Below are positions 1-16,122 of a stretch of 64,000 bases of DNA, piece by piece; position 1 is the stretch's first letter, and the number at the start of each line of letters is the position of its first letter. The translations under genes were made by a program, and so were the position numbers. A model generated the notes under the pieces. It was given only the letters and a program-made list of their open reading frames with translations. It did not search any database and was not told the DNA's origin. Source of the stretch: an uncultured Ignavibacteriales bacterium. Lineage in GTDB: Bacteria > Zixibacteria > MSB-5A5 > GN15 > FEB-12. Location: assembly GCA_964612145.1 (NCBI GenBank), contig CAZTBP010000013.1, positions 1 to 64,000 of the forward strand, given 5' to 3'.

Positions 1-15
1 CACCAGGCGGCCTGA

Positions 16-450
16 TTATGAAACAATTTGTCTCATTTCTATTGACACATTCCAGGCGCCCGGGCTATTTGGGTGCTTTGTTCCCGTCCCGTTGCGAATA
101 GTAAAGCCGAGTAGTACCGACGTGCTATCTTCGCCCGCATTGAATGTAACTACGGTACCCGAGTCATTGTGCTGTGGATTGCTGCCATCTATAATCGAGC
201 TATCAATGTGAGCCAAATCTCCGGAGTGTACGAACTCACTGGACAACACGATTCCCTTACCCCGGAAGTGGATGTTTTCGAAATATGTACCGGGTGCAAC
301 CAGCACCGTATCTCCATCCATCGCCGCATCAATGGCAGCTTGTATCGTCGGCTGGTCGGCTGGAACATGAATAGTGGCAGCAGTAGTAAATGAAACGAAA
401 ATGCCCCACGTCAGAAGGCAGATAACAAGACGCATAAACTCTCCCCGCAT
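16..450 (-). CDS. Short secreted protein (144 aa) with a signal peptide and the N-terminal start of a right-handed beta-helix fold. Paralogous to the N-terminus of the 43020..44465 protein. Possibly a truncated gene or pseudogene remnant.
   Basis: Signal peptide MRLVICLLTWGIFVSFTTAA. The motif TIHVPADQPTIQAAIDAAMDGDTVLVAPGTY matches TIRVPADQPNIQAAVDACDGDDTVLIADGIY of the 43020 protein. The ORF stops after 144 aa, whereas the paralog is 481 aa. Confidence 0.4.
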   Translation of the reverse strand: MRGEFMRLVICLLTWGIFVSFTTAATIHVPADQPTIQAAIDAAMDGDTVLVAPGTYFENIHFRGKGIVLSSEFVHSGDLAHIDSSIIDGSNPQHNDSGTVVTFNAGEDSTSVLLGFTIRNGTGTKHPNSPGAWNVSIEMRQIVS

Positions 451-1019
451 GTTTAGATTGGTCGGAACTGCTCCAAGATAACAGAATCGACAGATTTGTC
501 AACGGTCAGATTCCTTGGCTGGATTCCTTGACAGCCGCCCGATTCTGCCCGATATTGCAAGTCCTCAAGGCCCCGCTGGTCCCCCTCCCGTGTGCTCAAG
601 CCCAACCAGCGGGGCCGTCCTTTGCCTGAACGTGGAGACCAGAGGGACTTCGAAGCCGATGTGGAACCTGATCTACCTCTGGTGAGTGCCGCGAATACTC
701 AGTAGAATCGATTGTCGAGAACTTGTCCCGACGGTCCAGGCGGAAATGCAAACTTTGACGTTTGGTCAACAATCTAAGACTTTAGAGTGCAAGTTGTTAG
801 TAAAACGACTGTGCCAGTTCGCCAACTACCAACTACCTGCATAACAACTGAAAAATCACTTGCTATCAGCGACGGGAAAGGCGATATTATGCCTCAGGAA
901 AAGGCTTGTCTTGTGTGCTGGCTCAATCAAAGTGCACTCGCAGGGTAGCCAAACTTTTGATATTCGGGACAATTTCTGCCTTGGTATTGAGGTAGGAGAC
1001 ATTGCCGGAGATACATTGA

Positions 1020-1292
1020 GTGAATGGTGAAGGGACCTTCGTTGCTTTTCTAATCGTGTTCGCGGGTATCCCCCTTATGGGCATGTTCCTGTTGCACTTG
1101 TTATTGGGCGACAAGGCGTATCAAATCTTTAAGGCTCATGCGGCAATTGCCCTTATTCGTTTTTTAGTCCTCGCTCCGATTAAAGTCGTGGCGTACTTTT
1201 TTAAGGTCATATTTGAAGCTTGGGTAAAGTACAAATCGAGCTTTGTTGCGTCGGGAGCTTCGTTTCTGCAGTTCTTGAAAAAGTTAATTTGA
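1020..1292 (+). CDS. Small hydrophobic membrane protein (90 aa), hypothetical
   Basis: ORF with two predicted TM helices in an AT-rich 850-bp otherwise non-coding stretch. No recognisable homology. Confidence 0.2.
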   Translation: MNGEGTFVAFLIVFAGIPLMGMFLLHLLLGDKAYQIFKAHAAIALIRFLVLAPIKVVAYFFKVIFEAWVKYKSSFVASGASFLQFLKKLI

Positions 1293-1314
1293 CTCTATCT
1301 TGTGGAGAAAACGT

Positions 1315-1983
1315 ATGGTAAAGGATAGAACAGTCGATCTGAAGTCCAATAACAAAGAAAAGAAGCACGAGGACAATCCCCATCCCGAAGGCCATGTTGA
1401 TAACATGCCGTCAAACCAAAATAAGGATAATTCCGTTGAGCGTAACAGAAGTAGCGAAGTTCTCGATCTGCTGGAGAAGCTGTACTGCCTTACCGAGAAG
1501 AACCAAACTTCAGTAGCCGCAGTCGCGGCAAATATGGAGCAATCCAGTAAGCAAGGAGACTTGATAAAGAGCTTGTTTGCTAAGGTGGATTCATTAGAAC
1601 GAGATACGGTATTTCGCGACAGAATCCGGCCCGTACTCCTCGACATGATCCGACTTTATGATCGCGTTGAATTGATGTGCGGTGAGATAGCAGAACCTGT
1701 CGCTGATAACGAGGCGCTTAGTGTTCGGTTAAACAGCATTCGGAGCGAGTTATCTCAGATCCTGAAACGAAATGGTGTTGAGGAGCTCGATGTGTTGCAC
1801 AGGCCATTTGATGAATCTTTCAGCGAGGCGGCAGACAAAAAGCGGGTAAACGACCCGGCGTTACATATGAAGACAGTTGAGGTCTTAAGAAAGGCCTTTT
1901 TGTGCCATGGGCGATTGCTTAGACCAGCATTGGTACTGGTCGGCGAGTGCAAACCTGAGAACGGAGATGTGTCGGATGAGTAA
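1315..1983 (+). CDS. grpE: GrpE-like nucleotide exchange factor
   Basis: C-terminal GrpE signatures VNDPALHMKTVEV (DPxxHxA) and RKAFLCHGRLLRPALVLVGE (GYxLxxRxLRPAxVxV). GGAG lies 7 nt upstream of the ATG at 1315. The stop overlaps the Hsp70 start by 8 nt. Confidence 0.6.
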   Translation: MVKDRTVDLKSNNKEKKHEDNPHPEGHVDNMPSNQNKDNSVERNRSSEVLDLLEKLYCLTEKNQTSVAAVAANMEQSSKQGDLIKSLFAKVDSLERDTVFRDRIRPVLLDMIRLYDRVELMCGEIAEPVADNEALSVRLNSIRSELSQILKRNGVEELDVLHRPFDESFSEAADKKRVNDPALHMKTVEVLRKAFLCHGRLLRPALVLVGECKPENGDVSDE

Positions 1984-3502
1984 AGTGCTTGGAATCGATT
2001 TGGGCACAACAAACTGTTGTATGGCGGTTCTGAATGAATATGGTCGGCCCAAAGTGATTACTAACTCTGAAGGGCACAACACTACTCCTTCCGTAGTGCT
2101 ATTTCGGGGCGAGGAGCGAGTCGTTGGTGTACGGGCGAAGCGAGCACGGGTTGCTCAGGCAAATAATGTCGCCATGCTTATGAAGAGGTATATACTCAAA
2201 GAACATTGGCGGTTCATCGGACCTGATGGCAAAGAATACTCTCCTGAAGAGCTGTCCGCTATAGTGCTTCGGAAACTGAAACAGGATGCAGAAAAGGCCC
2301 TCGGTGAAGAAATCAAACAAGCTGTTATAACAGTACCTGCATATTTTGGCGATTTGGAGAGGAATCGAACAAAAGCCGCGGGCGAAATGGCCGGGTTAGA
2401 CGTCCTGCGGATAATAAACGAGCCAACCGCAGCAGCTTTGGCCTATGGGCTCGATCAAGCCGAAAGCGAACAGACAATCCTCGTCTACGATCTGGGTGGG
2501 GGGACATTCGATGTGACGATTATGAAAGTAACCGGTTCAAAAATCCAGGTTATCACATCCGGTGGGAACAAGTCTCTCGGGGGAGCCGATTTCGATCAAG
2601 CGATTGTTGAGCATATGAAGGAGCAGTTCATTGCCACACACCAAGTTGACCCAACCAAGGGGGGCGAGAGTCTAGGCGTTTTACAGGACTTTCTGGATAA
2701 GGCTGAACAAGCCAAATTTGACTTGTCAGCAGATACAGAAACAGATATAAACCTTTCGGCAGAAGGGCAAGTACTTGATCTCAACCTGAATAGGCAAACG
2801 TTTGAGTCTCTTATCGCAAATTACATCGAAGAAACTAAGGGCTATATGGACCAGGCACTAAGCGATGCGAGTATGACCTGGGGCGATATAGACCGCGTAT
2901 TGCTTGTTGGGGGGTCTGTGAGAATACCGGCAGTCAAGAAGATGGTAGAAGAGGCTTCGGGCAAGACAGCTGAAGGTGGAGTCAATCCGGACGAAATCGT
3001 TGCCGAAGGCGCGGCAATTGTCGGGGCTTCTGAGGTAGGTCAAACCATCCGTAAAGAAACTGGAGAAGAGGTGTCGGGGCTCGAAGTAAGAGATGTTACC
3101 GCACACTCGTTCGGCGTCAAAGCAAAAGAAGGGGGAGCACATGTGAACTCGATAATCCTTCCGAAGGACACTTCGATTCCGGCCTCCCGTACGCGAAACT
3201 TCACGACCCCTGAAGATAACCAGACATCAGTGGAGATTATAGTTCTCGAGGGTGAAGAGTTAGACCCCGATCTTTGCGAACAGCTGGGTGCGCTCCATAT
3301 CGAGGGACTTCCGCCTAAACCGAAAGGTGTACCCAAAATCGAAGTAACCATGACTTATACGAGAGAGGCCATCATTCAGGTTACTGCCCGGGAGCTAACC
3401 ACCGGCCTTGAAATCAAGGGTGAAGTAAAGGGGTCAGGACGGACTACAGCTGCAGACATTGCAGCCGTTCAGGGGGATATTGAAAAACTAAAAATCAAAT
3501 AG
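1976..3502 (+). CDS. Hsp70-family ATPase of about 508 aa that lacks the helical lid (HscC-like non-canonical Hsp70)
   Basis: Hsp70 motifs are present: VLGIDLGTTNCCMAV, ITVPAYFGDLERNRTKAAGEMAGLDVLRIINEPTAAALAYG and VYDLGGGTFDVTIM. The protein ends right after the SBD-beta region (about 508 aa versus about 640 for DnaK). The ATG at 1976 gives the canonical N-terminus MSKVLGIDLG. Confidence 0.85.
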   Translation: MSKVLGIDLGTTNCCMAVLNEYGRPKVITNSEGHNTTPSVVLFRGEERVVGVRAKRARVAQANNVAMLMKRYILKEHWRFIGPDGKEYSPEELSAIVLRKLKQDAEKALGEEIKQAVITVPAYFGDLERNRTKAAGEMAGLDVLRIINEPTAAALAYGLDQAESEQTILVYDLGGGTFDVTIMKVTGSKIQVITSGGNKSLGGADFDQAIVEHMKEQFIATHQVDPTKGGESLGVLQDFLDKAEQAKFDLSADTETDINLSAEGQVLDLNLNRQTFESLIANYIEETKGYMDQALSDASMTWGDIDRVLLVGGSVRIPAVKKMVEEASGKTAEGGVNPDEIVAEGAAIVGASEVGQTIRKETGEEVSGLEVRDVTAHSFGVKAKEGGAHVNSIILPKDTSIPASRTRNFTTPEDNQTSVEIIVLEGEELDPDLCEQLGALHIEGLPPKPKGVPKIEVTMTYTREAIIQVTARELTTGLEIKGEVKGSGRTTAADIAAVQGDIEKLKIK

Positions 3503-3518
3503 TGTAAGGCAGACCTAT

Positions 3519-4352
3519 ATGTCGCGTGAGTATCTTCGACGAATCGGTCTTCCGTCATCGGCCACAGAAAAGCAGATCGAAAATCGCATGACCGAACTGA
3601 TTCGCAAGCTGCAGAATAAACTCAATAGCCCTGTTATCTCGCATCGCGATCAAATTGAGAAGGAACTTGAAGAGTTGTTTCAGATTCGTGCCGCTCTGCG
3701 GGTTGGAAATAAAGAGGCTGGGTTGCAAGACGACGAAGAGAATTCTTCGTCCGATGAGAGCCTCGAGATATCTTATGGGGAGTTAACCGAAGGACTGGGA
3801 ATTGAGGAAAACTGTGAACCCTCAACTTCCAATGTTGGCTTGCTAATCGATACCTCTGGTAGCATGTCTGGCACAAAGCTGAAGGATGCCAAAATTGCGC
3901 TGGAGTCCTTTCTGAGTAACCTTGATGGCAACCAGATTATGGTTGGGCTCGCGGAATTTGGCAATACCATAAGTGTGGTTAGTGATCAAACATCCGAATT
4001 GGACCGGGTCAGGTCATCTATTGGCGAGCTTGTTTGTGGTGGAAGCACACCGCTATATGAGACTCTTGAGCTGGCTAGTAGCAAATGGTCATCCTTCTTG
4101 GGACAGAGTTTTTTATTCATTGTCGCGACAGACGGCCATCCTAACGGTTCCACTGAGCGCATTCTATCTCTCGCCGAGGAGATTAAAGAGCGGGGGGTTA
4201 GATTTATTACAATTGGCATCGGTTCCGATGTTAACGTCAAATTTCTGCAGGATTTGGCATCTACTCCAGAGGATTATTACTTTGCAGAGGCTAGTATACA
4301 ATTAGAGAGCATTTATCGACAAATTTCAGATGGGCTTGCGAGTTTAGACTAG
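3519..4352 (+). CDS. von Willebrand factor A (vWA/MIDAS) domain protein with an N-terminal degenerate J-like helical domain
   Basis: MIDAS motif LLIDTSGSMSG plus downstream GGSTPLYETL and ATDGHPNG. Residues 1-60 (EYLRRIGLPSSATEKQIENRMTELIRKL...SHRDQIEKELEELFQIRAAL) resemble J-domain helices II and III, with HRD in place of HPD. Confidence 0.65.
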   Translation: MSREYLRRIGLPSSATEKQIENRMTELIRKLQNKLNSPVISHRDQIEKELEELFQIRAALRVGNKEAGLQDDEENSSSDESLEISYGELTEGLGIEENCEPSTSNVGLLIDTSGSMSGTKLKDAKIALESFLSNLDGNQIMVGLAEFGNTISVVSDQTSELDRVRSSIGELVCGGSTPLYETLELASSKWSSFLGQSFLFIVATDGHPNGSTERILSLAEEIKERGVRFITIGIGSDVNVKFLQDLASTPEDYYFAEASIQLESIYRQISDGLASLD

Positions 4353-4370
4353 ATAAGGGAAACGATCGCT

Positions 4371-6521
4371 ATGGGTAAGTTCATAGACTATTTTGCGGAG
4401 CTCAACGAGGCGAAACTGCAGGGTGTTGGCAAGCTGATTCTGCGGTTAGATGCTAGACAGACAAACTTGGAGATTATAGAGAAGATCAAAATTCGACTAG
4501 GCAATAATCCCAGTAAACAGGCTGAGTATCTGCAGGGGCTTGCTCGAGAAGCTCGACCCATTTTCGAGGATAATAAGAAATACGCGGATTACTTTAAAGC
4601 GTATATTAGTTATGTGATTGAGACAAAGGTTAAAGAGGCACTTCTTGACGGGGAAGTTTCGCAAAAGGAGCTATCGATAATAGTTCAAGCAGCACGTGAG
4701 TTAGGTGAGTCAGATGAAAAGACTATAAAAACAATAAAAGATCTTGTCGAGGATGCGCATGGCATCATTGAAGATCCTCGGTCGGATGGGGGAAGAGAAT
4801 TTAGCACGCCATCCCGCAGTAAGTTCACGGACTATTTTGCTGAGCTAAATGGTGCCAAACTCGCTGGTATTAGCAAGCTGGTTCCAAAGTTGGATGCTAG
4901 ACTTACCAATTTGGAAATTATTGGGAAAATGAAGATTCGATTAGGTAATAATCCTAGTAAGCAAGCTGAGTACTTGCAGGGACTTGCGCGGGAGGCGCGT
5001 CTTATTTTCGAGGACGATAAGAAATACAGGGAGTACTTGATAGCTTACGTTGGATATGTGATTGAGACGAAGGTTCAATGGGCACTCGGCCTGGACGGAA
5101 AAATATCGCAAGAGGAACTGTCTATAATAATCCAGTCGGCACGAGACTTAGGCGTGTCCCATGAAGTTGCTTTAAAGACAATAAAAGTCCTTGTTAAGAA
5201 CGCAGGCGGTACCATTGAAAGCCCTGGGTCTGGGGGGAGAAGAGAATTTGGGAAGCCACCTCCAAAAACTCAGCCACAACCGAAAGCGCCACCGCAGCCT
5301 GGCGCCGGACAGAGGCAGCAATCGGGTGCCGGAGCGGGGTCGTCAACATCCGGTTCAGGAACGACCTTCGGTTTAGACAACTTGACCCCGGTCGAGAAGG
5401 CTAACATAGCCACCAGTATCGCTGGAACGCTTGGATTGCTCTACGTTCTTCTCAAAGTCACCTGGGTACCGCTGAATTGGTGGGGATTGCTGATTCCTGC
5501 GATCGCAGCGATTATCTCTATCAAAAATGCGAATTTGCCCGTGAAGAGGCACGCATGGAGCCTGGTAGCAATTCTATTCTTGTATTTCTGGAATGCTGCT
5601 CTACTATTAGTGCTCCTACCGACTTTTCTCCTTTGGCACTGGAGTCCAGTAATCTTCGCAAAGCTGAAACTGAAGCCGTCATATGTCTGGATTTTGCCCA
5701 TTGTCCTCTGCCTCGGCGTATATTCAACGTCATACGCAGTTAAACGTGTTCCCAGGAGAACCAGTAACATGGGATTTGTACAGCCAGCACCTAAACCTCC
5801 AGTCCAGCAGCAAGCTCCGCGGCAAGAGCGAAATACGCAAAATCGACCGGCGCAGACCAAGCCTGTGCCACAGTCATCCTCGGGCCAGTCACAACCGACT
5901 CAGACACGAAGGTCACAAACCACTTCGCCTCCCACGAACACGGTGAAGACAACAAAACCACCGACAACATCGGTGCCGCCAAAGACACAGGAGCCTAAGC
6001 CCCCAGCGACACGTACTCAGCCGAAGTCGGTTACATATGTATTCAATGCAGACAGCAGTGCATTCGAGCTATACTCGTCCGAGGGGATTCAAGGGACCGG
6101 AATAGTCGTCAACCAGGGTGACAGTATCATTATTGATGTTAGCGATAAGACGACTGTGGTTTGGAGTGAGGGCGAAGACCCGGTTGGGCCGGCCGGTTCG
6201 TCAGCCATCGCGTTGAGTCGAAATAATGGGACGGAGTTTTTAATTCCACAATCGCCATGCGGTGCCGTCATCGGTAGAATCGGTCAGGCAGGCAAGTGGT
6301 TCTGCATTGGACAGAAGTATCGTGCGCAAGCTGATAGAGAGGGCGAGCTTTTCTTGACAATCAATGACCGGCCGAACGGATTTGCTGACAATTTTGGCTT
6401 TTTCGGACTAAGTATAATCGTCAAGAGAAGGGTACCAAAGACTGCCAGCCTATTCGCTCCGGATTCAAAGCACGTCTTCGCGCAGGACGTTGAAATTTAC
6501 GAGATTAGGGGTGCAATTTGA
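4371..6521 (+). CDS. Multidomain membrane protein with 2x TerB-like about 148-aa tandem repeats (cytoplasmic), a PGS-rich linker, 4-5 TM helices, a P/T/Q-rich linker and a C-terminal PA-IL/LecA-like lectin domain
   Basis: Two about 75%-identical repeats, KFIDYFAELN...ELSIIVQAARELGES and KFTDYFAELN...ELSIIIQSARDLGVS. A hydrophobic block lies at aa 340-455. The C-terminus (GDSIIIDVSDKTTVVWSEG...GAVIGRIGQAG...NDRPNGFADNFGFFGLSI) parallels LecA (DVITIVAAGWASYGP...GALVMKIGNSG...NDVPGTYGNNSGSFSV). Confidence 0.6.
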   Translation: MGKFIDYFAELNEAKLQGVGKLILRLDARQTNLEIIEKIKIRLGNNPSKQAEYLQGLAREARPIFEDNKKYADYFKAYISYVIETKVKEALLDGEVSQKELSIIVQAARELGESDEKTIKTIKDLVEDAHGIIEDPRSDGGREFSTPSRSKFTDYFAELNGAKLAGISKLVPKLDARLTNLEIIGKMKIRLGNNPSKQAEYLQGLAREARLIFEDDKKYREYLIAYVGYVIETKVQWALGLDGKISQEELSIIIQSARDLGVSHEVALKTIKVLVKNAGGTIESPGSGGRREFGKPPPKTQPQPKAPPQPGAGQRQQSGAGAGSSTSGSGTTFGLDNLTPVEKANIATSIAGTLGLLYVLLKVTWVPLNWWGLLIPAIAAIISIKNANLPVKRHAWSLVAILFLYFWNAALLLVLLPTFLLWHWSPVIFAKLKLKPSYVWILPIVLCLGVYSTSYAVKRVPRRTSNMGFVQPAPKPPVQQQAPRQERNTQNRPAQTKPVPQSSSGQSQPTQTRRSQTTSPPTNTVKTTKPPTTSVPPKTQEPKPPATRTQPKSVTYVFNADSSAFELYSSEGIQGTGIVVNQGDSIIIDVSDKTTVVWSEGEDPVGPAGSSAIALSRNNGTEFLIPQSPCGAVIGRIGQAGKWFCIGQKYRAQADREGELFLTINDRPNGFADNFGFFGLSIIVKRRVPKTASLFAPDSKHVFAQDVEIYEIRGAI
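4377..5264. repeat. In-frame tandem duplication (2 x 444 bp) that encodes the two TerB-like repeats
   Basis: DNA and protein near-identity between 4377-4820 and 4821-5264. Example pair: gcaataatcccagtaaacaggctgagtatctgcagggg versus gtaataatcctagtaagcaagctgagtacttgcaggga. Confidence 0.8.
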
Positions 6522-6740
6522 TTCGTCAACAGTGACTAAACGTTCACAGTTTTTGACTGGAGTGTTAACGCAGGTGCAAATAGACACCAAATGTCAGTAC
6601 GCAGGGCATTAGATAGGACCTCTTCTCAGACGGAGAACATGTCCCTTTGCGTAACGTCGCACATGACAGATAAAGTCTATGTGCTTGCCACAAAGAAACG
6701 TCGACTGAGTAGATACACATACATCTGGAGGCATGGTCTC

Positions 6741-7937
6741 ATGAAGTACTTACGGGTCTTCGCCCTGTTCTGTCTGGTTCTTTCATACGCTGGATGCGGT
6801 GGTCCTAAAACGCTACGAGCACCAGTTCCTTATGAAAGTCAGAACGAATATACCGTCGATGATGTCATCACGGAAATGGTAACTGAAGCCTGCAGTCGCT
6901 TGCAGACAGAAGGGGCTAAAGGGAGGGTTGCTCTCCTGGACTGCTACAGTGCGTCGGGCAAATCTACCTCCTTGGAGGGCCGCATAAGTAATGTTCTTCT
7001 CGCAAAGTTTAGTGAATGTGCTACATCCGGAAGAACTTCTTTTAGCATTGTTCAGCCTCAAGTTATCGCATCCAATATGGCAGCACTTGATCTGTCGGCT
7101 CGAGCCGCGAATATCAAAAATAACGCTGACACGTGGAAGAGACTGGGGGTCCAAATGGTGGCCTCATGTCGTTGGCTACCGAATCCAAACGAGTCAATCA
7201 AGGTAATCTTTGAGTTTTTCGATGTAAGTTCGGGCGGACGACAAATTTTCACTATTGAGAGAACTCTGGAAAAAGATGACGATCTTCGAAAACTGCTCGG
7301 TGAAAAATTGCCCGGAATGCTCATAGTCGAATCGGAAACCGCCGGGTCGAGGGTGTACGTCGACGGCGAATTTAAGGGCGAGATAACTTCTGATCCGATA
7401 TCATTTGAAGTTCCCTACGGTACACACAGTCTCCGAATTGACCGGTCAGGGCACAAGTCCTTCTCTAAGAGTGTGACGATCGAAGAACGAGAGTCAGAAT
7501 ACCTGAAGGTGAAATTCACGCAGTCGCATCTGGCTCCAATGAATTCCGCCCTCTTGAGTGCGTTACTACCCGGCCTAGCATTGGCGGTCTATGGTCCGGA
7601 AGCTAAGGACAACGTTGCTTCGGCTTCTCACGGCATCGCAGCGGCGTTATTCTACACGGCTGCAATTTGCTGGGTGGTAGATGAAAGCAAAGACGATCCA
7701 TTCTTGACGCGCGACAATGACGACCGGTATAAAACTATCAAGAATATTGAGTTGTACACAGCGCTTGGCGCATATGTGGGCAATATAATTACTGGTTGGT
7801 TCGTTGGTAACGAGTACCGGAAGGAAACAAAAAGGGGGGTAGAGATCATGGCTCAAGAAATTCCGGACAGGCTGATCTTCTATGCAGATCGTAGCCACAA
7901 CGGCGACATGATTTTGAAGGTTGGCCTTAAATTCTAA
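6741..7937 (+). CDS. Lipoprotein with a PEGA domain and a C-terminal hydrophobic region
   Basis: Start at 6741 gives MKYLRVFALFCLVLSYAGCGG, a lipobox. The PEGA motif is LIVESETAGSRVYVDGEFKGEITSDPISFEVPYGTHSLRIDRSGHKSF. TM-like segments follow near aa 300-400 (LLSALLPGLALAVYG, AAALFYTAAICWVV). The 150-nt upstream extension in the ORF track has no support. Confidence 0.55.
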   Translation: MKYLRVFALFCLVLSYAGCGGPKTLRAPVPYESQNEYTVDDVITEMVTEACSRLQTEGAKGRVALLDCYSASGKSTSLEGRISNVLLAKFSECATSGRTSFSIVQPQVIASNMAALDLSARAANIKNNADTWKRLGVQMVASCRWLPNPNESIKVIFEFFDVSSGGRQIFTIERTLEKDDDLRKLLGEKLPGMLIVESETAGSRVYVDGEFKGEITSDPISFEVPYGTHSLRIDRSGHKSFSKSVTIEERESEYLKVKFTQSHLAPMNSALLSALLPGLALAVYGPEAKDNVASASHGIAAALFYTAAICWVVDESKDDPFLTRDNDDRYKTIKNIELYTALGAYVGNIITGWFVGNEYRKETKRGVEIMAQEIPDRLIFYADRSHNGDMILKVGLKF

Positions 7938-7954
7938 AAAAGTAGGTATCAGTA

Positions 7955-8323
7955 ATGAAACACATAGCTCTATTATTGGTATTGGCTCTGATGGCGAGTT
8001 TTCAAGGCTGTGCGAGTATCTTGTCTTCAGACACAGAGGTAGTTGGAGTGGCTAGATTGGAAGGTGCTCCTAGCAATGGTCATGGCGGGATACTTATCAG
8101 TAATGGACACGTAAGCGCCATTTCAGCATCAGACGGTACATTCACCCTATCGGGTCAGGTTCTCAAAGACACTGATTTCGATGTTATATTCTCAAAAGAC
8201 GGATACATATCTCAGGTGGTCAATATCTTCATCGATTATGCACCGGGAGATGATTCGGATGAGGACGATGGTCCCCTCGTAGTAGATGTTGGTACTGTTA
8301 CCTTGCCCTTGCAAAGTAAGTGA
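7955..8323 (+). CDS. Small lipoprotein with a carboxypeptidase-regulatory-like beta-sandwich domain
   Basis: Lipobox MASFQGCAS. The motif GILISNGHVSAISASDGTFTLSGQV resembles CarbopepD_reg. Confidence 0.45.
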   Translation: MKHIALLLVLALMASFQGCASILSSDTEVVGVARLEGAPSNGHGGILISNGHVSAISASDGTFTLSGQVLKDTDFDVIFSKDGYISQVVNIFIDYAPGDDSDEDDGPLVVDVGTVTLPLQSK

Positions 8324-8385
8324 TACTTACGATCTGTGGCATTCAATAGTATTGGTGAAGAGTCAGCTATAATTGGATATCTCCC

Positions 8386-9234
8386 ATGGAGCCAGTAATT
8401 AAGGACCAAGTTCGGTCATGGTCGCAGTTGAGTGCTATTCTGCAGGACGCTCGAGGGGTAGTAGATGCGGCCGGTATGAAGATGTTTTCAAATGGATACT
8501 TTCGTCCCGGGGATTTCAGTGAATTCGTTGTTGGAGCGGACCTTTTTTGTCTCGTTGGTTGGCCGATCAGTCTCCACTTGAATAGTGCGGTTGAGACTAC
8601 CGAGAAGTTTCTCAGGGCAAGTGAGAGTATCGAAAATACAGCTGGTCTAAGAAATGTATTAGCTAATTCGGTCATTCAGAGGTCCAAGGACGAGGATTCG
8701 GGTATTTTAGTGCATTGGAAGTTCATTGTGAATTCAGACAAGAAGTACTATAAGGACCGATATCGACGATACCCCGATGGCGGCTTCCTCCATACAGTCG
8801 ACACGCTTCTGTGGGAAACACACTGCCTATCAATGTGGGCATTGTCATTTTGGTATGATATCGCAGGAGCAGTACCTTCTGGCGACGCAGATCGTATAGC
8901 TGAAATCACCGACCGTCTTCTGGCCCTGATCAATGATCTTTTTCCAGACAAAGTCATCCAGGAAGACGATTCTCTCTTTGGCCTTGGTTTTGACGCTATA
9001 GACTCAGAGTTTATAATGTCAGCACTGGAAGAACACTACACTGGGAAGTCAGCACGGAAGCAGACTACTGAAGCCATGGGAAACTCTCCAACGAGTTCTT
9101 TGACCGAGGCTGAGTGGCTACAGGCAAGCGTAGGAACGTGGCGTGTTGATGGAAGATCAATTGAAGGTACTAAGTTGATGGTAATGCCGCTCTCACAGCT
9201 CGTAAAGTGGGTAGATATTCGAATTGACGGCTGA
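8386..9234 (+). CDS. Hypothetical protein (282 aa)
   Basis: Long ORF with no recognisable motif. It lies in the low-GC island. Confidence 0.4.
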   Translation: MEPVIKDQVRSWSQLSAILQDARGVVDAAGMKMFSNGYFRPGDFSEFVVGADLFCLVGWPISLHLNSAVETTEKFLRASESIENTAGLRNVLANSVIQRSKDEDSGILVHWKFIVNSDKKYYKDRYRRYPDGGFLHTVDTLLWETHCLSMWALSFWYDIAGAVPSGDADRIAEITDRLLALINDLFPDKVIQEDDSLFGLGFDAIDSEFIMSALEEHYTGKSARKQTTEAMGNSPTSSLTEAEWLQASVGTWRVDGRSIEGTKLMVMPLSQLVKWVDIRIDG

Positions 9235-9296
9235 AACTATGAGAGGAATCGAATTTTGTTGAGCAGAATTGTCGTATTTGATTCGGAGGTAAACTC

Positions 9297-9641
9297 GTGA
9301 AGTTAATTATCAAACGGGCTCAAGCCGAGCAGAAAGGGCTCTTTGGAGGGCACAAAGGAATGAAATTTACTCTGTCGTGTCAGGTTGACCTATCGGATGA
9401 AGAGAGAGGACTCCTTGAGAAATACAATGTTGAAGAGCATCCGTTGACGTACAGACAGCAAGATGGAGTAGATGTACCGGCTCTCAGAATCGGCGACTTG
9501 GTGCGTGGAAGAACTTACGAGGTAAACGACGTAAGCACGCTGCTCAATAACGAGGAAGTCATCAAGAATGCCTGTCATGACTTCAAAATGTTGTTAGAAG
9601 TTATGCGCTCCTTCGGGGGTGAGGAAGTAGTCGAAATATAA
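9297..9641 (+). CDS. Hypothetical protein (114 aa)
   Basis: ORF with no recognisable motif. It lies in the island cargo. Confidence 0.35.
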   Translation: MKLIIKRAQAEQKGLFGGHKGMKFTLSCQVDLSDEERGLLEKYNVEEHPLTYRQQDGVDVPALRIGDLVRGRTYEVNDVSTLLNNEEVIKNACHDFKMLLEVMRSFGGEEVVEI

Positions 9642-9674
9642 TAAGTGACTATTGAATTTTAGGGAGAGAAAATT

Positions 9675-9821
9675 ATGGCTGAAAAAGAATGTCCCGTATG
9701 TCATTACTCCGGAAAGTGCCCCAAATGTAATGGTAGGGGTGGTGGATTTACGACTGTTTGCTCCACCTGTAAGGGTACTAAGAAGTGTCCCCGTTGTGAC
9801 GGCAAGGGCGTAATCAAGTAA
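9675..9821 (+). CDS. 48-aa DnaJ-type zinc-finger (4 x CxxC, CxxCxGxG) mini-protein. It is not in the supplied ORF track.
   Basis: My own translation gives MAEKECPVCHYSGKCPKCNGRGGGFTTVCSTCKGTKKCPRCDGKGVIK*. The four CxxC units are CPVC, CPKCNGRG, CSTCKGTK and CPRCDGKG, which match the DnaJ cysteine-rich CxxCxGxG repeat. RBS agggagag lies 8 nt upstream. Confidence 0.55.
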   Translation: MAEKECPVCHYSGKCPKCNGRGGGFTTVCSTCKGTKKCPRCDGKGVIK

Positions 9822-9898
9822 GAGTTGGCTTAAATATAGAACATCTCCGGATTGATGGGTCCGCGTCGTAGCACCGGGGACGGACGAAGGAGTTTGAT

Positions 9899-10612
9899 AT
9901 GGATTTGGCCATTTTAAGAATTCATGCTACCAAAGCAGTCGGATCTCTTGTTGCGGGGGGGATTCGTGGCATTGCTTTCTTTGGTATTTTCGGGATGATA
10001 GTGGGAGGCACGATGTTTTTTGTAATTCAGTCCGTGACCAAACACTCCGATGGAGTCGGGAGTTTCATTCTAATGCTTGCTTGGATCGTGGTAGGACTTC
10101 TTCTTGGTGGATTTATCGGCTTCTTCCGGGGCTTACGTGGCGTCTGTCGACAATCACTGGTCAAGAGTCATTGGGTAAACGACGCGTGCGATAGACTATC
10201 ACGGGAGACAATTGGAAGGCTGCGTTCACCCCAGAAGCAGTCGAATCTACAAGTCGAGCTGAAGGAACTGGTCATGACCTGTCAACAGGAACAGGAGTTG
10301 TCAGATCAGCACGTTAAAAAAGATCGAGCCACCGGCGGTGTTGTCAGGCGAATGGTCGAGCGAATCACTGTTCTCCCCCAATTGGCTGTCCGCAAATGCT
10401 TCACCGACCTGATCAACCAAATGTCCGCAAGTATAGAATCTGACGCTGCGCTGTCAGCGCTCGTTGACCGGTTCCCCGAGGAGTTGAAGAGCCGCACGAA
10501 TTCACTTATCGACGCCTGGATTAAACAAATCTTTGCAAGGCCACTAGGAATAGCATACGTAGTTACTGGATGTGCGGTAGTCCTATTGGCTATCCTGACC
10601 GTCTTGATCTGA
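9899..10612 (+). CDS. Membrane protein, hypothetical (237 aa)
   Basis: Two N-terminal and one C-terminal TM helices. No other motif. Confidence 0.4.
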   Translation: MDLAILRIHATKAVGSLVAGGIRGIAFFGIFGMIVGGTMFFVIQSVTKHSDGVGSFILMLAWIVVGLLLGGFIGFFRGLRGVCRQSLVKSHWVNDACDRLSRETIGRLRSPQKQSNLQVELKELVMTCQQEQELSDQHVKKDRATGGVVRRMVERITVLPQLAVRKCFTDLINQMSASIESDAALSALVDRFPEELKSRTNSLIDAWIKQIFARPLGIAYVVTGCAVVLLAILTVLI

Positions 10613-10708
10613 TGTTATTTACACTCTCGTTTGTGCAATATTCCTAAGCAGCATTTAAGGTCCATAAAGGTACCAACACCCATATATATAGACACCAATT
10701 TGTGAATT

Positions 10709-11821
10709 CTAAACTTCTCCACCCCCTTCTTCAAACGGCAGTTTCTCCACCGCATTCGCCAGGTGATCCGGGCCGAGGTGGGCGTAGATCATGGTCGTTT
10801 CTATATCCGAGTGGCCCATCAGCTTCTGAACCGTTGGGAGATCGACGCCCTGCATTACCAAGTGGCTCGCGAACGTGTGGCGAAGCGTATGGACTTTCGT
10901 GAACTCCCCGATCTCGGCCTTCTTGGCGATTTTAATGAGCTCCATCCGGAGATAGTTGTGCATGTTCTTCCCTGACGACTTCACCGGAAAGACATAATCG
11001 TTCTTCGAACGGCCGTCTCGCTTCCGATGCAAGTCGGTAAGGAGCTTCAGGAGGCCATCGCTGATCGGGATGTCCCTCTCCCCCGTCTTCGGCCGCCAGT
11101 CCTTCTTCCGACGGATACTGATCTGTCGCCGCTCAAGATCGATATCGGCCCAGGTGAGATTCTCAAGCTCCGCTTTCCGCATGCCTGTATGAAGAAATGT
11201 ATAGTAGATCGGGTAGAGATTCGGCGGGCAGACGTCAAGGAACCTCCTGCATTCATTGACGGACAGAAATCGAGGCGTCTGATTTTCATCTACCTTCAGC
11301 TTCGCCACACCCTTGGTCGGATTCTCTCGAATGTATCCCCACTTGATCGCCAGGTTGAAAATTAGCCGAAGCGTATCGAGCTCAAAATTCACTGTACGCG
11401 ACTTGGCCACCTTGGGCGACCTACCCCCATTGGCATCTTCCTCGACGGCAGGACTACCGCCGTTGGCGTTCTTCCGAAACACCTTGTACTTGTCGATGAC
11501 CTCGGTCGAGACATCGGAAACATATCTGACCTTCGGCGAGGACTGGAGGAACTCCCGGAAATGATCAATCACCGCCCGATAACGGTCTGTCGTCGTCTTA
11601 CGGTGAGTAGCCTGGCTGTACTCAAGGTAGGAATCAAGAAAGTCGGTCAGCGGCATCTTGGCCTGGCCAAAACCATGCTCTTCTTTGGCAATCTTGACCT
11701 CGGCTTCCTTGAGAGCCAGCTCGGCCACTTTCTTCACCGGCCCGATTCGTCGGCGCACCCTGCGCCCATCGACCCGAATATCAAGATACCAGACTTTGCC
11801 GCGCTTATAGATTTCGCCCAT
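10709..11821 (-). CDS. int: Tyrosine site-specific recombinase / phage-type integrase
   Basis: C-terminal catalytic box [39 protein letters not shown] (R...HxxR...Y). An N-terminal SAM-like/AP2 region is present. The gene sits immediately 3' of tRNA-Leu. Confidence 0.9.
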
Positions 11822-11931
11822 ATCGACGTCTCCCCTTGGTCACAAGTTGGTCACAGCCCTGTTTTCCAAGAAGGAACGAAAGACTTAAGTCGTTGTCAAG
11901 TGGGAAGTTGAATCGGAGGGGAAAATCTAAA

Positions 11932-12015
11932 TGCCGAAGGGGGGATTCGAACCCCCACATCCTTACGGATACTGCGCCCTGAACGCAGCGCGTCTACCTG
12001 TTTCACCACTTCGGC
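11932..12015 (-). tRNA. tRNA-Leu (anticodon CAG), class II with a long variable arm
   Basis: Reverse complement reads GCCGAAGTGGTGAAACAGGTAGACGCGCTGCGTTCAGGGCGCAGTATCCGTAAGGATGTGGGGGTTCGAATCCCCCCTTCGGCA. The acceptor stem is GCCGAAG/CTTCGGC. The anticodon stem-loop is CTGCG-TTCAGGG-CGCAG. The T-arm is GGGGGTTCGAATCCCCC. Confidence 0.85.
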
Positions 12016-12164
12016 ATTCATAACGACTCCGGGGAAACACCGCAATTGCTGCCAATCACGCCCTTCCCTCGGGCCGCCGAGGCCGGTGAACCGCCTCGGT
12101 AGTCGCCAATATATACGCTCTGGCTCGTAACGCAACAGCAATTTTCAAGGCCGGAACAACAGAT

Positions 12165-14477
12165 CTACCGGCCACCTTGATTCAACGATAAACGGACTCC
12201 ATCGCCAAACCGCTTCCCCTCATAAAACAAGCCAAAGCGTAATGTCGTATACTCCGGCCGGTTCGGTATTACCGTATGTACCATGCGAACATCTTCCTTC
12301 TGCCAGTTATTGAAACGCGGCAGTGGCAAGAAGTCATGGTTGTCGAAACTATCCCCATCACCAAAAGCATGCAGGAAGATGCGGTAACTACTGGTTGGCT
12401 CCACTCGCGCATGCAATGTCAGAAATAAATGGAGACTGTCTTTTCTGTCAACCACTAGTGTATTCATCAGATCAAATCGCCCATCCAGATCATAGGCGAT
12501 AGAGTCCATCGGGAAATCACGCCATTTTGTCCAGTCGACACCCAAATACCGATCGGATTCCTCCTGAGCAGACACGTTGAGCCATTGACGTATCACCCGC
12601 CACCGAGCAAGGAAAAGCAGACTGTCACGGCTGGTGCCTTTGAACCTCCATTGCCCTTGCCCGGCAGTCGTCGGTGAGTCCACAACAGAAAAGAATCCAT
12701 CCACCTCCTGTCGTCGGAAAAACCTCTCGTCTTCGAACACCTCCGGGCTGAACTGAATTTCTTGCAGCGTGTACCGATTGGGATAGTTATCCAGGACCAT
12801 CGTCAAATACAGCACACTCTCGCGACTGCGCAGGTGGACAAAATCAACACCATCGAAAGTGTTGCTTGTCAGTGTAAGATTCAAGAGATACGGATCGTCT
12901 ATATGCTGCACCAGCGAAAGCAACCGATAGCGGCCGGTATACCGAGCCGCCGGATGACTGTAGTGATGATTAGGCGCCACAAAAAGATAAACCGGATAAA
13001 ATGACGGCAACTCTTCCCAGGCACTCAGAAATACCGTACCTCGACGCGGCACCATCCGTTCTTCACCAAAACCCCAGTTTGCCGGTTGACTTTTCCTCGC
13101 TTCCGCAATCCCTCCCGACTTCCCAACGACATTCGCCTGGTAGACAAGTGACAACAGCAACACAATACCCAAGGCTGCGAACACTCGCTGCACCCGTGGT
13201 CGCCCGTGCGCGGCCCGACTGAATGCAACCAGTGCCAATGCGATCACGGGACCGGTCACAAATGCAAGAAACTCTGCGGCCTTGATGAGATTGATCGGAC
13301 GGTCCAGGGCACCGAGAAAAGTCCCGAGCAGATAGTAACAGACTATCCCGCTAACCAGTGTTACCAGAGCCCGGTTTACGGAGGAATGGACTCTCCGCAA
13401 AGCATAAAGCAGCCCGCCCAGGAACAGAAGACCGGAAACGGTGAGAGTCATAAAACTGAAATTGACCCCCACGGAATCAATATGGTGCCACCCCGTCCCT
13501 TTGTCGACCCCGTATTTCGCGATGTCCGCCATCAATGGACCCCAGTAAAGACTGCTAACAACCGCCGCCGCCAACATGACACCTATTGCCGGCCATAGTC
13601 GAAATGAGTCGCGGACATATGGACGAATGAGACGGCTAAAAAAGACAACGCGAAGCAGTAGCAAGAATCCGCCAATGAAAAAACCGTAGAAATAGGTCAT
13701 AAAAATCAGGCCACCGATGAGGCCACCCCGCACAAAAAACGACCGGGTCGGCGCTGGATGTTTCACCTGCTCTATATAATAGAGCCACCAGGGAACGAAA
13801 AAAATATTCCCGAGCATCGCGTGCGGGACAGACAGTGCAAAGGCTCTCCCCCCTAGCAGGTAAACGAAACTCACGACCGTAATCACGGCCGCCTGACGAT
13901 CACTCACTATGCGACGCCACAAAAACCAGACAAAGAACGGGCTGACAAAGTGAATCGCCTGCGCCGCAAACTTCATCATAGCAAATGACGCAGCGTCATC
14001 AAGCCGCGCGAACAATGAAAGGACATAATACAACACCGGCGGGTAAAACGGTGAGAGGTCCTTGTAGTAAAAATCCTTCGGAACCCACCAAGTGGCAAAC
14101 TTCTCAATCATCGCGATCCGGAACTTCTGGTCCCCCCAGTATCCATTCAAACTAAACGCCGTTCCGTCAAGCAGCAGGCAGATGACGACATACCCGTACA
14201 CCGACACTACCGCGACAAGAACCGCCGACTTGATCCGCCAGGAAACTCCCGCAAGCCAAACCACCACCGTAGTCAAGACAAACAACAACCCCCACATGTC
14301 CAGCCAGATCAGGTCCCGAACCAGTAGCGTTTCTGAAAACGGCTTTGGGGTTGAACTGTACTGCCACAGATAAACAGCCATCCCCCCGAACAAGACCAAA
14401 GCAACAGCGGCAATCCAGTTCTTCGGAGTAAACCAGCGCGTGCTGTGCATCCTGTCCATCAGACCGCCTCCGTACAA
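12165..14477 (-). CDS. Large polytopic membrane protein (770 aa) with about 12 N-terminal TM helices and a C-terminal soluble domain. Possibly a GT-C-type glycosyltransferase.
   Basis: Strong hydrophobic periodicity over aa 20-480. No ATP or other motifs. Architecture only. Confidence 0.5.
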   Translation of the reverse strand: MYGGGLMDRMHSTRWFTPKNWIAAVALVLFGGMAVYLWQYSSTPKPFSETLLVRDLIWLDMWGLLFVLTTVVVWLAGVSWRIKSAVLVAVVSVYGYVVICLLLDGTAFSLNGYWGDQKFRIAMIEKFATWWVPKDFYYKDLSPFYPPVLYYVLSLFARLDDAASFAMMKFAAQAIHFVSPFFVWFLWRRIVSDRQAAVITVVSFVYLLGGRAFALSVPHAMLGNIFFVPWWLYYIEQVKHPAPTRSFFVRGGLIGGLIFMTYFYGFFIGGFLLLLRVVFFSRLIRPYVRDSFRLWPAIGVMLAAAVVSSLYWGPLMADIAKYGVDKGTGWHHIDSVGVNFSFMTLTVSGLLFLGGLLYALRRVHSSVNRALVTLVSGIVCYYLLGTFLGALDRPINLIKAAEFLAFVTGPVIALALVAFSRAAHGRPRVQRVFAALGIVLLLSLVYQANVVGKSGGIAEARKSQPANWGFGEERMVPRRGTVFLSAWEELPSFYPVYLFVAPNHHYSHPAARYTGRYRLLSLVQHIDDPYLLNLTLTSNTFDGVDFVHLRSRESVLYLTMVLDNYPNRYTLQEIQFSPEVFEDERFFRRQEVDGFFSVVDSPTTAGQGQWRFKGTSRDSLLFLARWRVIRQWLNVSAQEESDRYLGVDWTKWRDFPMDSIAYDLDGRFDLMNTLVVDRKDSLHLFLTLHARVEPTSSYRIFLHAFGDGDSFDNHDFLPLPRFNNWQKEDVRMVHTVIPNRPEYTTLRFGLFYEGKRFGDGVRLSLNQGGR

Positions 14478-14769
14478 AGTGGCTTGTCCCGTCCAGGGGC
14501 TGCTTGCAGTATCCTGATTGTTAATTTTGCCATTAGCTTGGGAAATGATAGGCTTGCCGATTGGCAGGTGTCAACAATCTTCCGGTCAAAAAGTCGTAAA
14601 CCCTTTAGAAAATGTATTGAATTGTCCAGCGTCGGGCGCTATGTTAACTTTCATAAGTCGACCGAAATTGTGCCTCTCCTGAGGCGAAGAGTGTTACGTA
14701 TCATTCAGCAAACCGGGCATTGAGCAATGGGACGGGGCCTATCTCAGTTGCTATAGTTGCTCATGGAGC

Positions 14770-16035
14770 GTGCGCATGTCAGCTTTTCTCGAAGCACTTA
14801 CCTCACATGACTCCCCAAAAAACCGAGCCCCCGCTCGACCAGCTATCTCACGTCGCGATCTGGCGGCCGTGCTGCTGCTTTCAGTCGTTTTAGCGGCGGT
14901 TTCGTACTTCGTCAACCAATACGACGGGGCCTATCTTATCCGATCCGATGCCGTATGGGAAAATAATCTCGAGTTTCACCAAACCTATCATCCCTTTGCA
15001 ACTCGAGTTTTCACTACTACTTTGATGCAGATCGGACATGAGCAATTTGGTCTCAGGCTCGTGACGGCATTCGCCATTATCCAGTATTCACTATTCATTG
15101 TTCTCGGTCCGTTATGTTTCGTCTTCCTTCGCCACGCGGGCCTTCGGCGGTCCAGCAGCTACCTCGGTGTTCTGGTTATGCTTACTGCTTATCCGATACT
15201 CGCCGCCTTTCATATGCCCATTTACACATGGGACGACTTCTGGATGTATGGCGCCATAATGCTGACGTTTACGCTTGCTTTTCGGGCCCGCCTTATCATA
15301 GCGAGCCTCGTCTTCGGTGTGGGAATCCTCGCACGAGACCCTATTATATTGTTTTATCCCATTCTGGTACTTGCTGTCTGCCAGTCGCCGGGCAGCCGAG
15401 CCACGAAGATTATTGCGGCACTTAGCCCGCTGGTCATATATTTCGTATTCATCATTTTCGCAATGGAGCCACCTGATCAGGCGCGCTGGATGAATTTCAG
15501 CAAAAACTTCCTCAAACCCGATTGGGCAAAGAATACCGCATTCTCTTTCGTCGCCGGGATGGGGATATTGTGGTTGTCCGCGCCAGTGGCTGGTGTTCGG
15601 CTCGGTCAAACCCTCCTGCGTCTGAATATCCCGCGTTTGATCCTCATTGGAGCTGCCTTCATCACGCCGCTCACAGTATTGACGGCCCTAACCATGGGGT
15701 TGGCCCGAGAAACCCGATTATTCTTCCCACCAGTCTTCTTTGCCCTCCCACTATCACTTTACCTGCTTGAATATTATACGCGATTCCATAAAAAGCCCCG
15801 GTCTTGGCTTCTAGCGGCTGGACTTGCGGCAATGGGAGCATCGGCCTGGCTTGGCATCCAAATTGCGCGATTCGTCTTTCCCCAACTCGAAGGACGTACC
15901 TGGCCGGCGTTCTTCCAGGCACATCTTGGAGTAAACATAGGTCTGGGAATTTGCTTCTTACTTTTTGTGATCTATCGGATTGTTCGAACAACGCCGCGAC
16001 TGCAGAAACCATCCTCCAGCAAGTACGTTCAGTAA
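14770..16035 (+). CDS. Polytopic membrane protein (421 aa), hypothetical
   Basis: More than 10 predicted TM helices. Adjacent to other envelope genes. Confidence 0.5.
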   Translation: MRMSAFLEALTSHDSPKNRAPARPAISRRDLAAVLLLSVVLAAVSYFVNQYDGAYLIRSDAVWENNLEFHQTYHPFATRVFTTTLMQIGHEQFGLRLVTAFAIIQYSLFIVLGPLCFVFLRHAGLRRSSSYLGVLVMLTAYPILAAFHMPIYTWDDFWMYGAIMLTFTLAFRARLIIASLVFGVGILARDPIILFYPILVLAVCQSPGSRATKIIAALSPLVIYFVFIIFAMEPPDQARWMNFSKNFLKPDWAKNTAFSFVAGMGILWLSAPVAGVRLGQTLLRLNIPRLILIGAAFITPLTVLTALTMGLARETRLFFPPVFFALPLSLYLLEYYTRFHKKPRSWLLAAGLAAMGASAWLGIQIARFVFPQLEGRTWPAFFQAHLGVNIGLGICFLLFVIYRIVRTTPRLQKPSSSKYVQ

Positions 16036-16122
16036 GACAACCCTCGTGCGCGGTTCACAGCATTGCGCACTTCCGTTTCAAAATTACGTGACAGATGCCC
16101 TGACCCCTTTATATTGATCAGC

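Follow-up and report, generated by a model that had tools for sequence, protein, structure and literature searches.

Islands of the Islander type at tRNA and tmRNA genes combine a tyrosine integrase directly 3′ of the tRNA and transcribed away from it, foreign cargo and insertion at the tRNA 3′ end, and they are defined by a displaced tRNA fragment, attR (PMC4383910). The locus described here shares the first three features. It lies at the beginning of a 64,000-nt stretch of DNA from an uncultured bacterium (hereafter the window; positions 1 to 64,000, forward strand, of contig CAZTBP010000013.1, assembly GCA_964612145.1) and consists of a tRNA-Leu(CAG) gene, a tyrosine integrase and an operon built around an Hsp70-like ATPase. 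Unlike in the Islander set, no displaced fragment was found and the contig ends; furthermore, the integrase is host-like and conserved in position in a sister lineage, whereas the cargo is not.

Positions 1-11945 probably belong to a genomic island that has integrated at the tRNA-Leu(CAG) 3′ end, and represent its tRNA-proximal part. The island is an ordinary member of a well-known class and its cargo is mildly novel. As one more tRNA-linked integrase island from a poorly studied uncultured lineage (labelled Calditrichota or Zixibacteria) it adds little as such; its value lies in what appears to be a clean case of an old, host-adapted integrase-tRNA junction joined to recently exchanged cargo, and in a very rare, self-contained operon of Hsp70, GrpE and a vWA protein with a J-like N-terminus, accompanied by orphan membrane partners. 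For this operon a point of comparison is the MoxR-vWA ternary conflict systems, in which a chaperone-type NTPase works with a vWA co-chaperone carrying a metal ion-dependent adhesion site (MIDAS) and with variable partners, in mobile or variable genomic contexts (Kaur, Burroughs, Iyer, Aravind 2020, PMC7159879).

The integrase and its tRNA

The features at the junction are as follows.

11931-12016 (-): tRNA-Leu(CAG), intact; called by ARAGORN and by Rfam RF00005 at 49.2 bits; its 3′ end (11931) faces the integrase
10709-11821 (-): tyrosine integrase, 370 aa; PF00589 and PF13102, phrog_1 at E 2e-74
11822-11930 (-): tRNA-integrase spacer with a TTGACAA box and a tandem TGTGACCA-N3-TGTGACCA at 11837-11854
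11922-11945 (no strand): candidate att core; bounded by contig ends of an independent assembly (11945 and 11922) and without a second copy in the window

The initial annotation had placed a tyrosine integrase directly 3′ of tRNA-Leu, and this was confirmed: both genes are on the minus strand with a 109-nt spacer between them, the integrase start codon standing 109 nt past the tRNA 3′ end. The tRNA is the only one that ARAGORN finds in the window, and an Rfam search of positions 1-12400 at a permissive threshold returned nothing else. The integrase carries a Phage_integrase domain (E 6.6e-33) and a SAM-like N-terminal domain, its catalytic set R-K-H-R-H-Y is complete (R215, K245, H311, R314, H337, Y346), and it is full length as judged against 120 homologues at 98% coverage. 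Promoter-like and terminator-like sites showed no excess over shuffled expectation.

At E<1e-20 more than 1296 homologues were found. The top 120 have a uniform length of about 365 aa and are 56-73% identical, and the organisms named for them are Zixibacteria or plain 'bacterium'. This is a large family of Zixibacteria/Calditrichota-type genomes. It is nearly absent from IMG/VR, which holds one 31% relative, and the plasmid collection contains no close relative of the integrase. Genomic contexts were fetched for three sets of loci besides the window.

L084-86 (integrase 73% identical): HPPK-FolB-aminotransferase-aldolase-HtrA-sigma-glycosyltransferases, then tRNA-Leu(CAG), then the integrase 110 nt on; core synteny as in the window
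L087 (3.98-Mb genome; integrase 61%): tRNA-Ser(CGA), integrase, two giant secreted FG-GAP/Big_5 proteins, a PriCT_1 primase-type protein
L092-94 (integrase 57%): core genes, tRNA-Ser(GGA), integrase, beta-helix/BNR proteins of the type IX secretion system (T9SS) type, HTH_17 (excisionase-like), PC4-like, AAA_25

Every fetched member of the family stands about 110 nt 3′ of a class II tRNA, i.e. one with a long variable arm: Leu-CAG, Ser-CGA or Ser-GGA (11931-12016 in the window, 9807-9891 in L084, 9798-9885 in L087 and 9799-9890 in L092). There may be a family-wide preference for long-arm tRNAs. The upstream TTGACAA box and the tandem TGTGACCA-N3-TGTGACCA of the spacer are kept in L084/L086, L087 and L092 as in the window (L092 has one degenerate copy), although the integrases of these lineages are just 57-73% identical; the motifs are probably the integrase promoter/operator or arm-type sites. 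Because the tRNA-adjacent position and the conserved spacer motifs recur in all four lineages, the family is a genuine tRNA-targeting integrase of integrative elements. In L087 and L092-94, where 10 kb past the integrase was read, the cargo runs antiparallel to the integrase and an excision/replication module stands at the far end. The window has the integrase and the antiparallel cargo and lacks the distal module, which fits an island continuing beyond position 1.

GC content is 47.9% in 1-10708 and 55.9% in 12017-64000, a drop of 8 points, and the lowest value for any 10.7-kb window of the core is 54.7%. GC at third codon positions (GC3) is 0.41-0.54 in the cargo genes versus 0.66-0.77 in housekeeping genes, and the tetranucleotide distance to the core is 26-30 for island windows versus 10-17 for typical core windows, the sole core outlier (37.5-42.5 kb) being due to a thrombospondin-repeat gene. 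On these measures the DNA past the integrase is foreign, but the integrase gene has core-like values (GC 54.5%, GC3 0.69), so the compositional break falls at about 10.7 kb, at the integrase stop, rather than at the tRNA. A GC contrast of about 48% versus about 60% had been estimated by eye; sliding-window and tetranucleotide computation shows the drop to be real, but the contrast is 48% versus 56%, 8 points and not 12. Low GC had also been ascribed to everything left of the tRNA, which is correct for 1-10708, the Hsp70 and vWA genes included, but not for the integrase. The description of an 850-bp AT-rich non-coding stretch does not stand: 451-1299 has 47.9% GC, like the rest of the island, and contains a 90-aa open reading frame (ORF) at 1020-1292, while the ORF-free part, 451-1019, has 50.1% GC.

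Extent and age of the probable island, and alternative readings

The distal att repeat, which had not been found by eye in the initial annotation, was likewise not found in the window by pattern searches with a 31-mer and a 24-mer (up to 3 mismatches) and a 16-mer (up to 2) or by blastn-short at word size 7; the best repeat match is 11 nt at 9956-9966 with E 3.8, as expected by chance. The suggestion that the far end lies in or beyond 451-1299 or beyond the window start is half upheld, as the window begins at a contig end but there is no repeat within 451-1299. The island is undelimited because the contig ends, with no attR in the window. Since the excisionase/primase module of its relatives is missing here, the island probably runs on past position 1, where an excisionase-like and primase/helicase module as in other family members would be expected, and about 24 nt from the tRNA 3′ end would be repeated at its distal limit.

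That length comes from a second assembly. The exact integrase protein is on record in an NCBI contig of 109,299 nt and in Logan run SRR7048227; Logan uses k=31 and reports contigs only if they are longer than 150 bp (PMC12424806). Logan contig SRR7048227_9043 corresponds to window positions 26-11945 at 100% identity, and contig _26814, which matches the core side without a difference, stops at 11922. Their only shared sequence is a 24-nt overlap at 11922-11945, of which 15 nt are the end of the tRNA and 9 nt lie downstream of it. With k=31, a shared segment of 24 nt leaves 31-24-1 = 6 junction-specific 31-mers, a 36-nt linker that is below the Logan limit, which fits the observation; a pair of single-nucleotide polymorphisms or a random coverage gap would not set both contig ends symmetrically around the tRNA 3′ end. 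The graph breaks on both sides of the 24-nt segment, which suggests that the SRR7048227 sample also contains other junctions, be it an empty site, an excised circle or a different island, and 11922-11945 is taken as the candidate att core. IMG/VR contains nothing relevant to this candidate core. At the other side, the window start is almost certainly a contig end: the window reaches just 25 nt left of the Logan contig end, a difference that would be explained by two assemblers with different k stopping at the same graph branch. Look-ups of the exact 144-aa, 90-aa and GrpE products did not lead to any source-contig sequence left of position 1.

The 25-nt overhang suggests that, from near position 55, the sequence is common to a further locus or variant; no other copy of the window's first 50 nt was found in the window or in IMG/VR.

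The relative ages of junction and cargo can be judged against L084. Its integrase is 73% identical to that of the window at the amino acid level, within the range of the shared core proteins (sigma 97%, FolB 75%, HtrA 74%, HPPK 63%, aldolase 60%, aminotransferase 57%), and the tRNA+integrase block is 72% identical in nucleotides versus 75% and 68% for core blocks. In other hosts the integrase also tends to follow the adjacent core DNA in GC (0.45 vs 0.48, 0.54 vs 0.55, 0.57 vs 0.65), with a gap of at most 4 points in L087 and L092 and an integrase 8 points lower in L084. Meanwhile, the gene after the integrase in L084 is unrelated to that in the window and encodes a DUF5122/dockerin-type secreted protein, the L084-86 contigs stopping 0.85 kb after the integrase. 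The integrase of the sister lineage is also on record on a 601-kb contig (HOY58807.1, HPM38261.1 and others). Immediately behind its intact integrase gene, L084 has a second copy of 43 aa of the C-terminus (positions 11094-11222; 70% identical to window integrase residues 323-365), apparently left behind when recombination replaced the integrase or the element. The host-like composition of the integrase, together with its presence in the sister lineage at core-like divergence, indicates an old junction and newer cargo. Most simply, the integrase was already joined to the tRNA before the two lineages separated, or else hosts and elements diverge together, with the cargo changing over time; the later replacement of the cargo probably took place through recombination between related elements or through a secondary insertion.

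Several observations weigh against an island. The tRNA 3′ end is not repeated within 1-64000, nor was an att repeat found within 10 kb in L087, L092 and L093. Neither an excisionase nor any gene for replication or transfer turned up in Pfam and PHROGs scans of 1-10708, and the argument from the assembly graph, which is drawn from contig ends, is indirect. The core-like composition and shared position of the integrase could equally mean a fixed, immobile remnant. Nor was an empty site recovered in two genome-collection scans and one metagenome scan, which gave no usable relative of the tRNA flank. In the genome collection the AftA-like neighbour of the tRNA had no relative, and with the sigma factor as query the contigs of the closest relatives (L003 and L005) stop 0.9-2.1 kb past sigma, before any tRNA, the other loci scanned in this way being without tRNA-Leu. 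In the metagenome collection the AftA-like protein had one 42% relative, on a contig that again stops before any tRNA.

In the main rival explanation, an ancestral and possibly domesticated integrase stays fixed at tRNA-Leu as a relic, and the low-GC operon is a variable region acquired otherwise and independent of the activity of the integrase. The core-like GC3 of the integrase (0.69), its occurrence at the same site in the sister lineage with core-like divergence and the lack of an att repeat and of mobility genes in the window would all follow from it, as would the variability of the core side of the tRNA, where a glycosyltransferase locus also differs between lineages. However, the same family at three different tRNAs requires mobility, no catalytic residue is lost, HTH_17 and primase modules accompany other members, both breaks in the assembly graph coincide exactly with the tRNA 3′ end, and the second, partial copy of the integrase 3′ region in L084 speaks for replacement of an element at this site. 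A fixed relic is regarded as unlikely. A chimera of assembly or binning, in which a low-GC contig of another organism was joined via the conserved tRNA sequence, would account for the Logan assembly leaving the two sides unjoined (ends 11945 and 11922), but it is extremely improbable: the tRNA-integrase join is reproduced with the same core synteny in the contigs of three independent relatives, the compositional break at about 10.7 kb falls inside a continuous Logan contig and not at the contig junction, and 9 of the 24 nt shared by the two Logan contigs lie beyond the tRNA.

A remnant of a prophage or phage satellite is hardly more credible. The integrase does match phrog_1, and other members of its family are accompanied by a primase and HTH_17 module, an arrangement that resembles phage satellites. 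However, capsid, terminase, tail and lysis genes are absent, the PHROGs matches are otherwise weak and function-less (the vWA protein and a 122-aa protein), and the near absence of the integrase family from IMG/VR, with its single 31% relative, speaks against this reading. A prophage is excluded for the visible part of the island, which has no structural genes. Pfam matches to relaxase, coupling protein or type IV secretion system genes, by which an integrative conjugative element would be recognised, are also lacking in the window portion of the island.

A tRNA-targeted integrase island with foreign cargo, its far end possibly beyond the window, is thus the best explanation and is partly supported. 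The initial annotation saw the classical signature of a tRNA-targeted element here; the integrase-tRNA anatomy and the foreign cargo agree with this, but there is no attR, the integrase is outside the low-GC block and the junction is old. The comparison with relatives that it proposed gave a divided answer, as L084 has an unrelated gene after the integrase but shares both tRNA and integrase, and no empty site was seen. The old junction tempers, but does not overturn, the earlier picture of a tRNA island.

Three further loci lie around the island and in the core.

16-450 (-): 144-aa ORF; signal peptide and first turns of a right-handed beta-helix protein; GC3 0.50 (island-like)
43020-44465 (+): 481-aa Beta_helix/FlgD_ig/T9SS-tail core protein
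38998-42351 (-): 1117-aa thrombospondin type 3 repeat protein, E 2e-114; causes the core tetranucleotide outlier

The 144-aa ORF is a paralogue of the 481-aa core protein (69% over 32 aa at the N-terminus). It stops 15 nt short of the contig end, and either the assembly break has cut it or the gene itself is truncated. On the core side of the tRNA, positions 12165-17094 encode an AftA-like glycosyltransferase, a 419-aa protein and a C5-epimerase-like protein with intermediate GC3 (0.55-0.69), and the sister lineage has other glycosyltransferase genes instead (PMT_2 and an 813-861-aa protein). This region is a second variable, envelope-glycan locus abutting the tRNA.

A rare cargo operon around Hsp70

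The cargo comprises 11 co-directional plus-strand genes, antiparallel to the integrase, with gaps of -8 to 77 nt except for 219 nt before the PEGA gene. In the following, TM stands for transmembrane.

451-1019 (no strand): ORF-free spacer, 569 nt; no RNA family match
1020-1292 (+): 90-aa hydrophobic protein, 2-3 TM segments; first operon gene, also called on the independent Logan contig
1315-1983 (+): GrpE-like nucleotide-exchange factor, 222 aa; PF01025 at E 3e-14, far under the NCBIfam equivalog cut-offs; 8-nt overlap with the Hsp70 start
1976-3502 (+): Hsp70/DnaK-like ATPase, 508 aa; PF00012 at E 4e-140; intact ATPase motifs
3519-4352 (+): vWA protein, 277 aa; PF00092 at E 1e-18; intact MIDAS (DTSGS..T..D) read from the sequence
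4371-6521 (+): 716-aa orphan membrane protein; at the N-terminus two helical modules of 148 aa each; about 4 TM segments (residues 346-457); linkers rich in P/T/Q; PA-IL-like lectin fold at the C-terminus
6741-7937 (+): PEGA predicted lipoprotein, 398 aa; PF08308 at E 8.6e-11; hydrophobic C-terminal part; start as on the Logan contig
7955-8323 (+): predicted lipoprotein, 122 aa; lipobox by eye; faint CarboxypepD_reg-like beta-sandwich match
8386-9234 (+): 282-aa protein; no family match; AlphaFold2 (AF2) model unusable
9297-9641 (+): 114-aa protein; no family match
9675-9821 (+): 48-aa protein with DnaJ-type zinc finger; four CxxCxGxG motifs by direct reading; PF00684 at E 7e-4, below the cut-off; called on the Logan contig
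9899-10612 (+): 237-aa membrane protein, TM segments at both ends; last operon gene; no family match

The spacer at 451-1019 presumably holds the regulatory region of the operon. At 569-616, upstream of the operon, two perfectly matching 12-bp arms of an inverted repeat (GGCCCCGCTGGT / ACCAGCGGGGCC) enclose a loop of 24 nt, and no Rfam family fits this hairpin.

The Hsp70 has the nucleotide-binding domain and the beta substrate-binding domain without the helical lid, matching positions 1-513 of the 625 in the DnaK model; its identity to canonical DnaK is 46-48%, and its score is 472 bits versus a 648-bit equivalog cut-off for DnaK. The N-terminal ~70 aa of the vWA protein align with the whole J domain in hhalign (81.9% probability, E 1.1e-5, 61 columns), with the HPD motif absent; as the J-domain alignment was typed by hand, the result is supportive and not definitive. 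The N-terminal modules of the 716-aa protein, which has an internal repeat at 4375-5258 and a PF07828 match of 26 bits, are possibly J-like too, given an hhalign probability of 10.9% at first and of 41% (E 2.8e-4, full-length) after two more distant homologues were added. Searches of PDB sequences with this module and with the vWA N-terminus produced no significant match, and the predicted structures of the module (predicted local distance difference test, pLDDT, 59.5) and of the 282-aa protein (38.9) were both too poor for a fold search.

Relatives of the operon are few. A search of 5.8 billion proteins returned 9 homologues of the vWA protein, two of them full length, and the 716-aa module had 2 matches among 1.84 billion representatives, one being itself. 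The order Hsp70-vWA-716-aa protein recurs at 60-73% identity on a contig of 48.6% GC (L089). In L090 a distant Hsp70-vWA pair (3183-4631; 38% and 45% identity) precedes genes for a multi-TM protein, for a coiled-coil protein and for an ATPase of HerA/FtsK-like (DUF87) type, which suggests that the pair may combine with different partner modules. L095 has GrpE-Hsp70 and a protein with an N-terminal module of the 716-aa type and no vWA, beside fragments read as transposase-like from their translations alone. The plasmid collection contains no close vWA relatives, and a Meiothermus vWA neighbourhood is without Hsp70.

The domain content would be consistent with a private Hsp70 cycle, in which the lid-less Hsp70 has its own GrpE as exchange factor, the J-like-vWA protein acts as an adaptor that binds Hsp70 and, without HPD, may not stimulate it, and the zinc-finger mini-protein provides a client-binding element. 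The ATPase cycle could then gate the assembly or activation of membrane and envelope parts, namely the lectin-ended 716-aa protein, the two lipoproteins and the two small membrane proteins. That the cargo is a device for defence or inter-cellular conflict, built on a dedicated Hsp70 machine, is a serious but tentative proposal with slightly less than an even chance. It has to contend with the lack of any PADLOC match and of a recognisable effector domain in the cargo, and with a J-like assignment that depends on the hand-typed alignment and is better for the vWA N-terminus (82%) than for the 716-aa module (only 41%). A specialised role in envelope assembly is a possible alternative. Myxococcus SglK/GrpS, which act in exopolysaccharide production, would be a precedent for such an envelope role.

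The cargo and described chaperone systems

The cargo matches no known defence system. The published Hsp70 conflict systems rest on GTPases or McrBC, which are absent here. PADLOC-DB 2.0 gave no significant match to the cargo, the best being Hsp70 to PDC-M61B at E 0.005. The readings of the cargo as a CoCoNuT or as a GTPase-Hsp70 system were ruled out by the absence of McrB or GTPase components. Type III CoCoNuTs likewise bring together an Hsp70-like protein (nucleotide-binding and substrate-binding domains) and a TerY-like vWA in predicted defence operons, but they are based on McrB/McrC and have degenerate Hsp70 ATPase motifs, whereas there is no McrBC here and the Hsp70 is DnaK-like (PMC11090510). 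The GAP1-N2 GTPase systems, described mainly in Actinobacteria and Firmicutes, are alike in having an extra Hsp70 and GrpE in a non-housekeeping operon with DnaJ-related partners (PMC7159879), but no GTPase, tubulin or FNIII-repeat protein was detected in the present operon.

With the canonical grpE-dnaK-dnaJ operon, the cargo shares a GrpE followed by an Hsp70 with intact ATPase motifs, as well as J-related and CxxCxGxG elements. It differs from that operon in that the Hsp70 is lid-less, the J-like part lacks HPD, the zinc finger is a separate protein of 48 aa, and vWA, membrane and lipoprotein genes are added. The MoxR-vWA systems are alike in their pairing of a chaperone-type NTPase with a MIDAS-bearing vWA co-chaperone; here, however, the NTPase is an Hsp70 with its own GrpE, the vWA protein has a J-like N-terminus, and there is neither an effector-associated domain nor a recognisable effector (PMC7159879). 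No cargo protein has an AAA+ or GTPase domain, the core of MoxR and TRAFAC systems, while the intact vWA MIDAS is a trait in common.

It is rather doubtful, though worth stating, that the cargo represents an undescribed Hsp70-driven kind of system, an Hsp70 analogue of the MoxR-vWA systems carried as exchangeable island cargo, with the recurring Hsp70-vWA pair and its changing partners (the 716-aa protein here and in L089, the HerA-like ATPase in L090) defining a new defence or conflict family. If the operon encodes a machine for conflict or envelope remodelling, it would provide a tractable case in which a specialised bacterial Hsp70 is paired with a J-like protein lacking HPD, and the chaperone/co-chaperone logic of the MoxR-vWA systems would extend to Hsp70.

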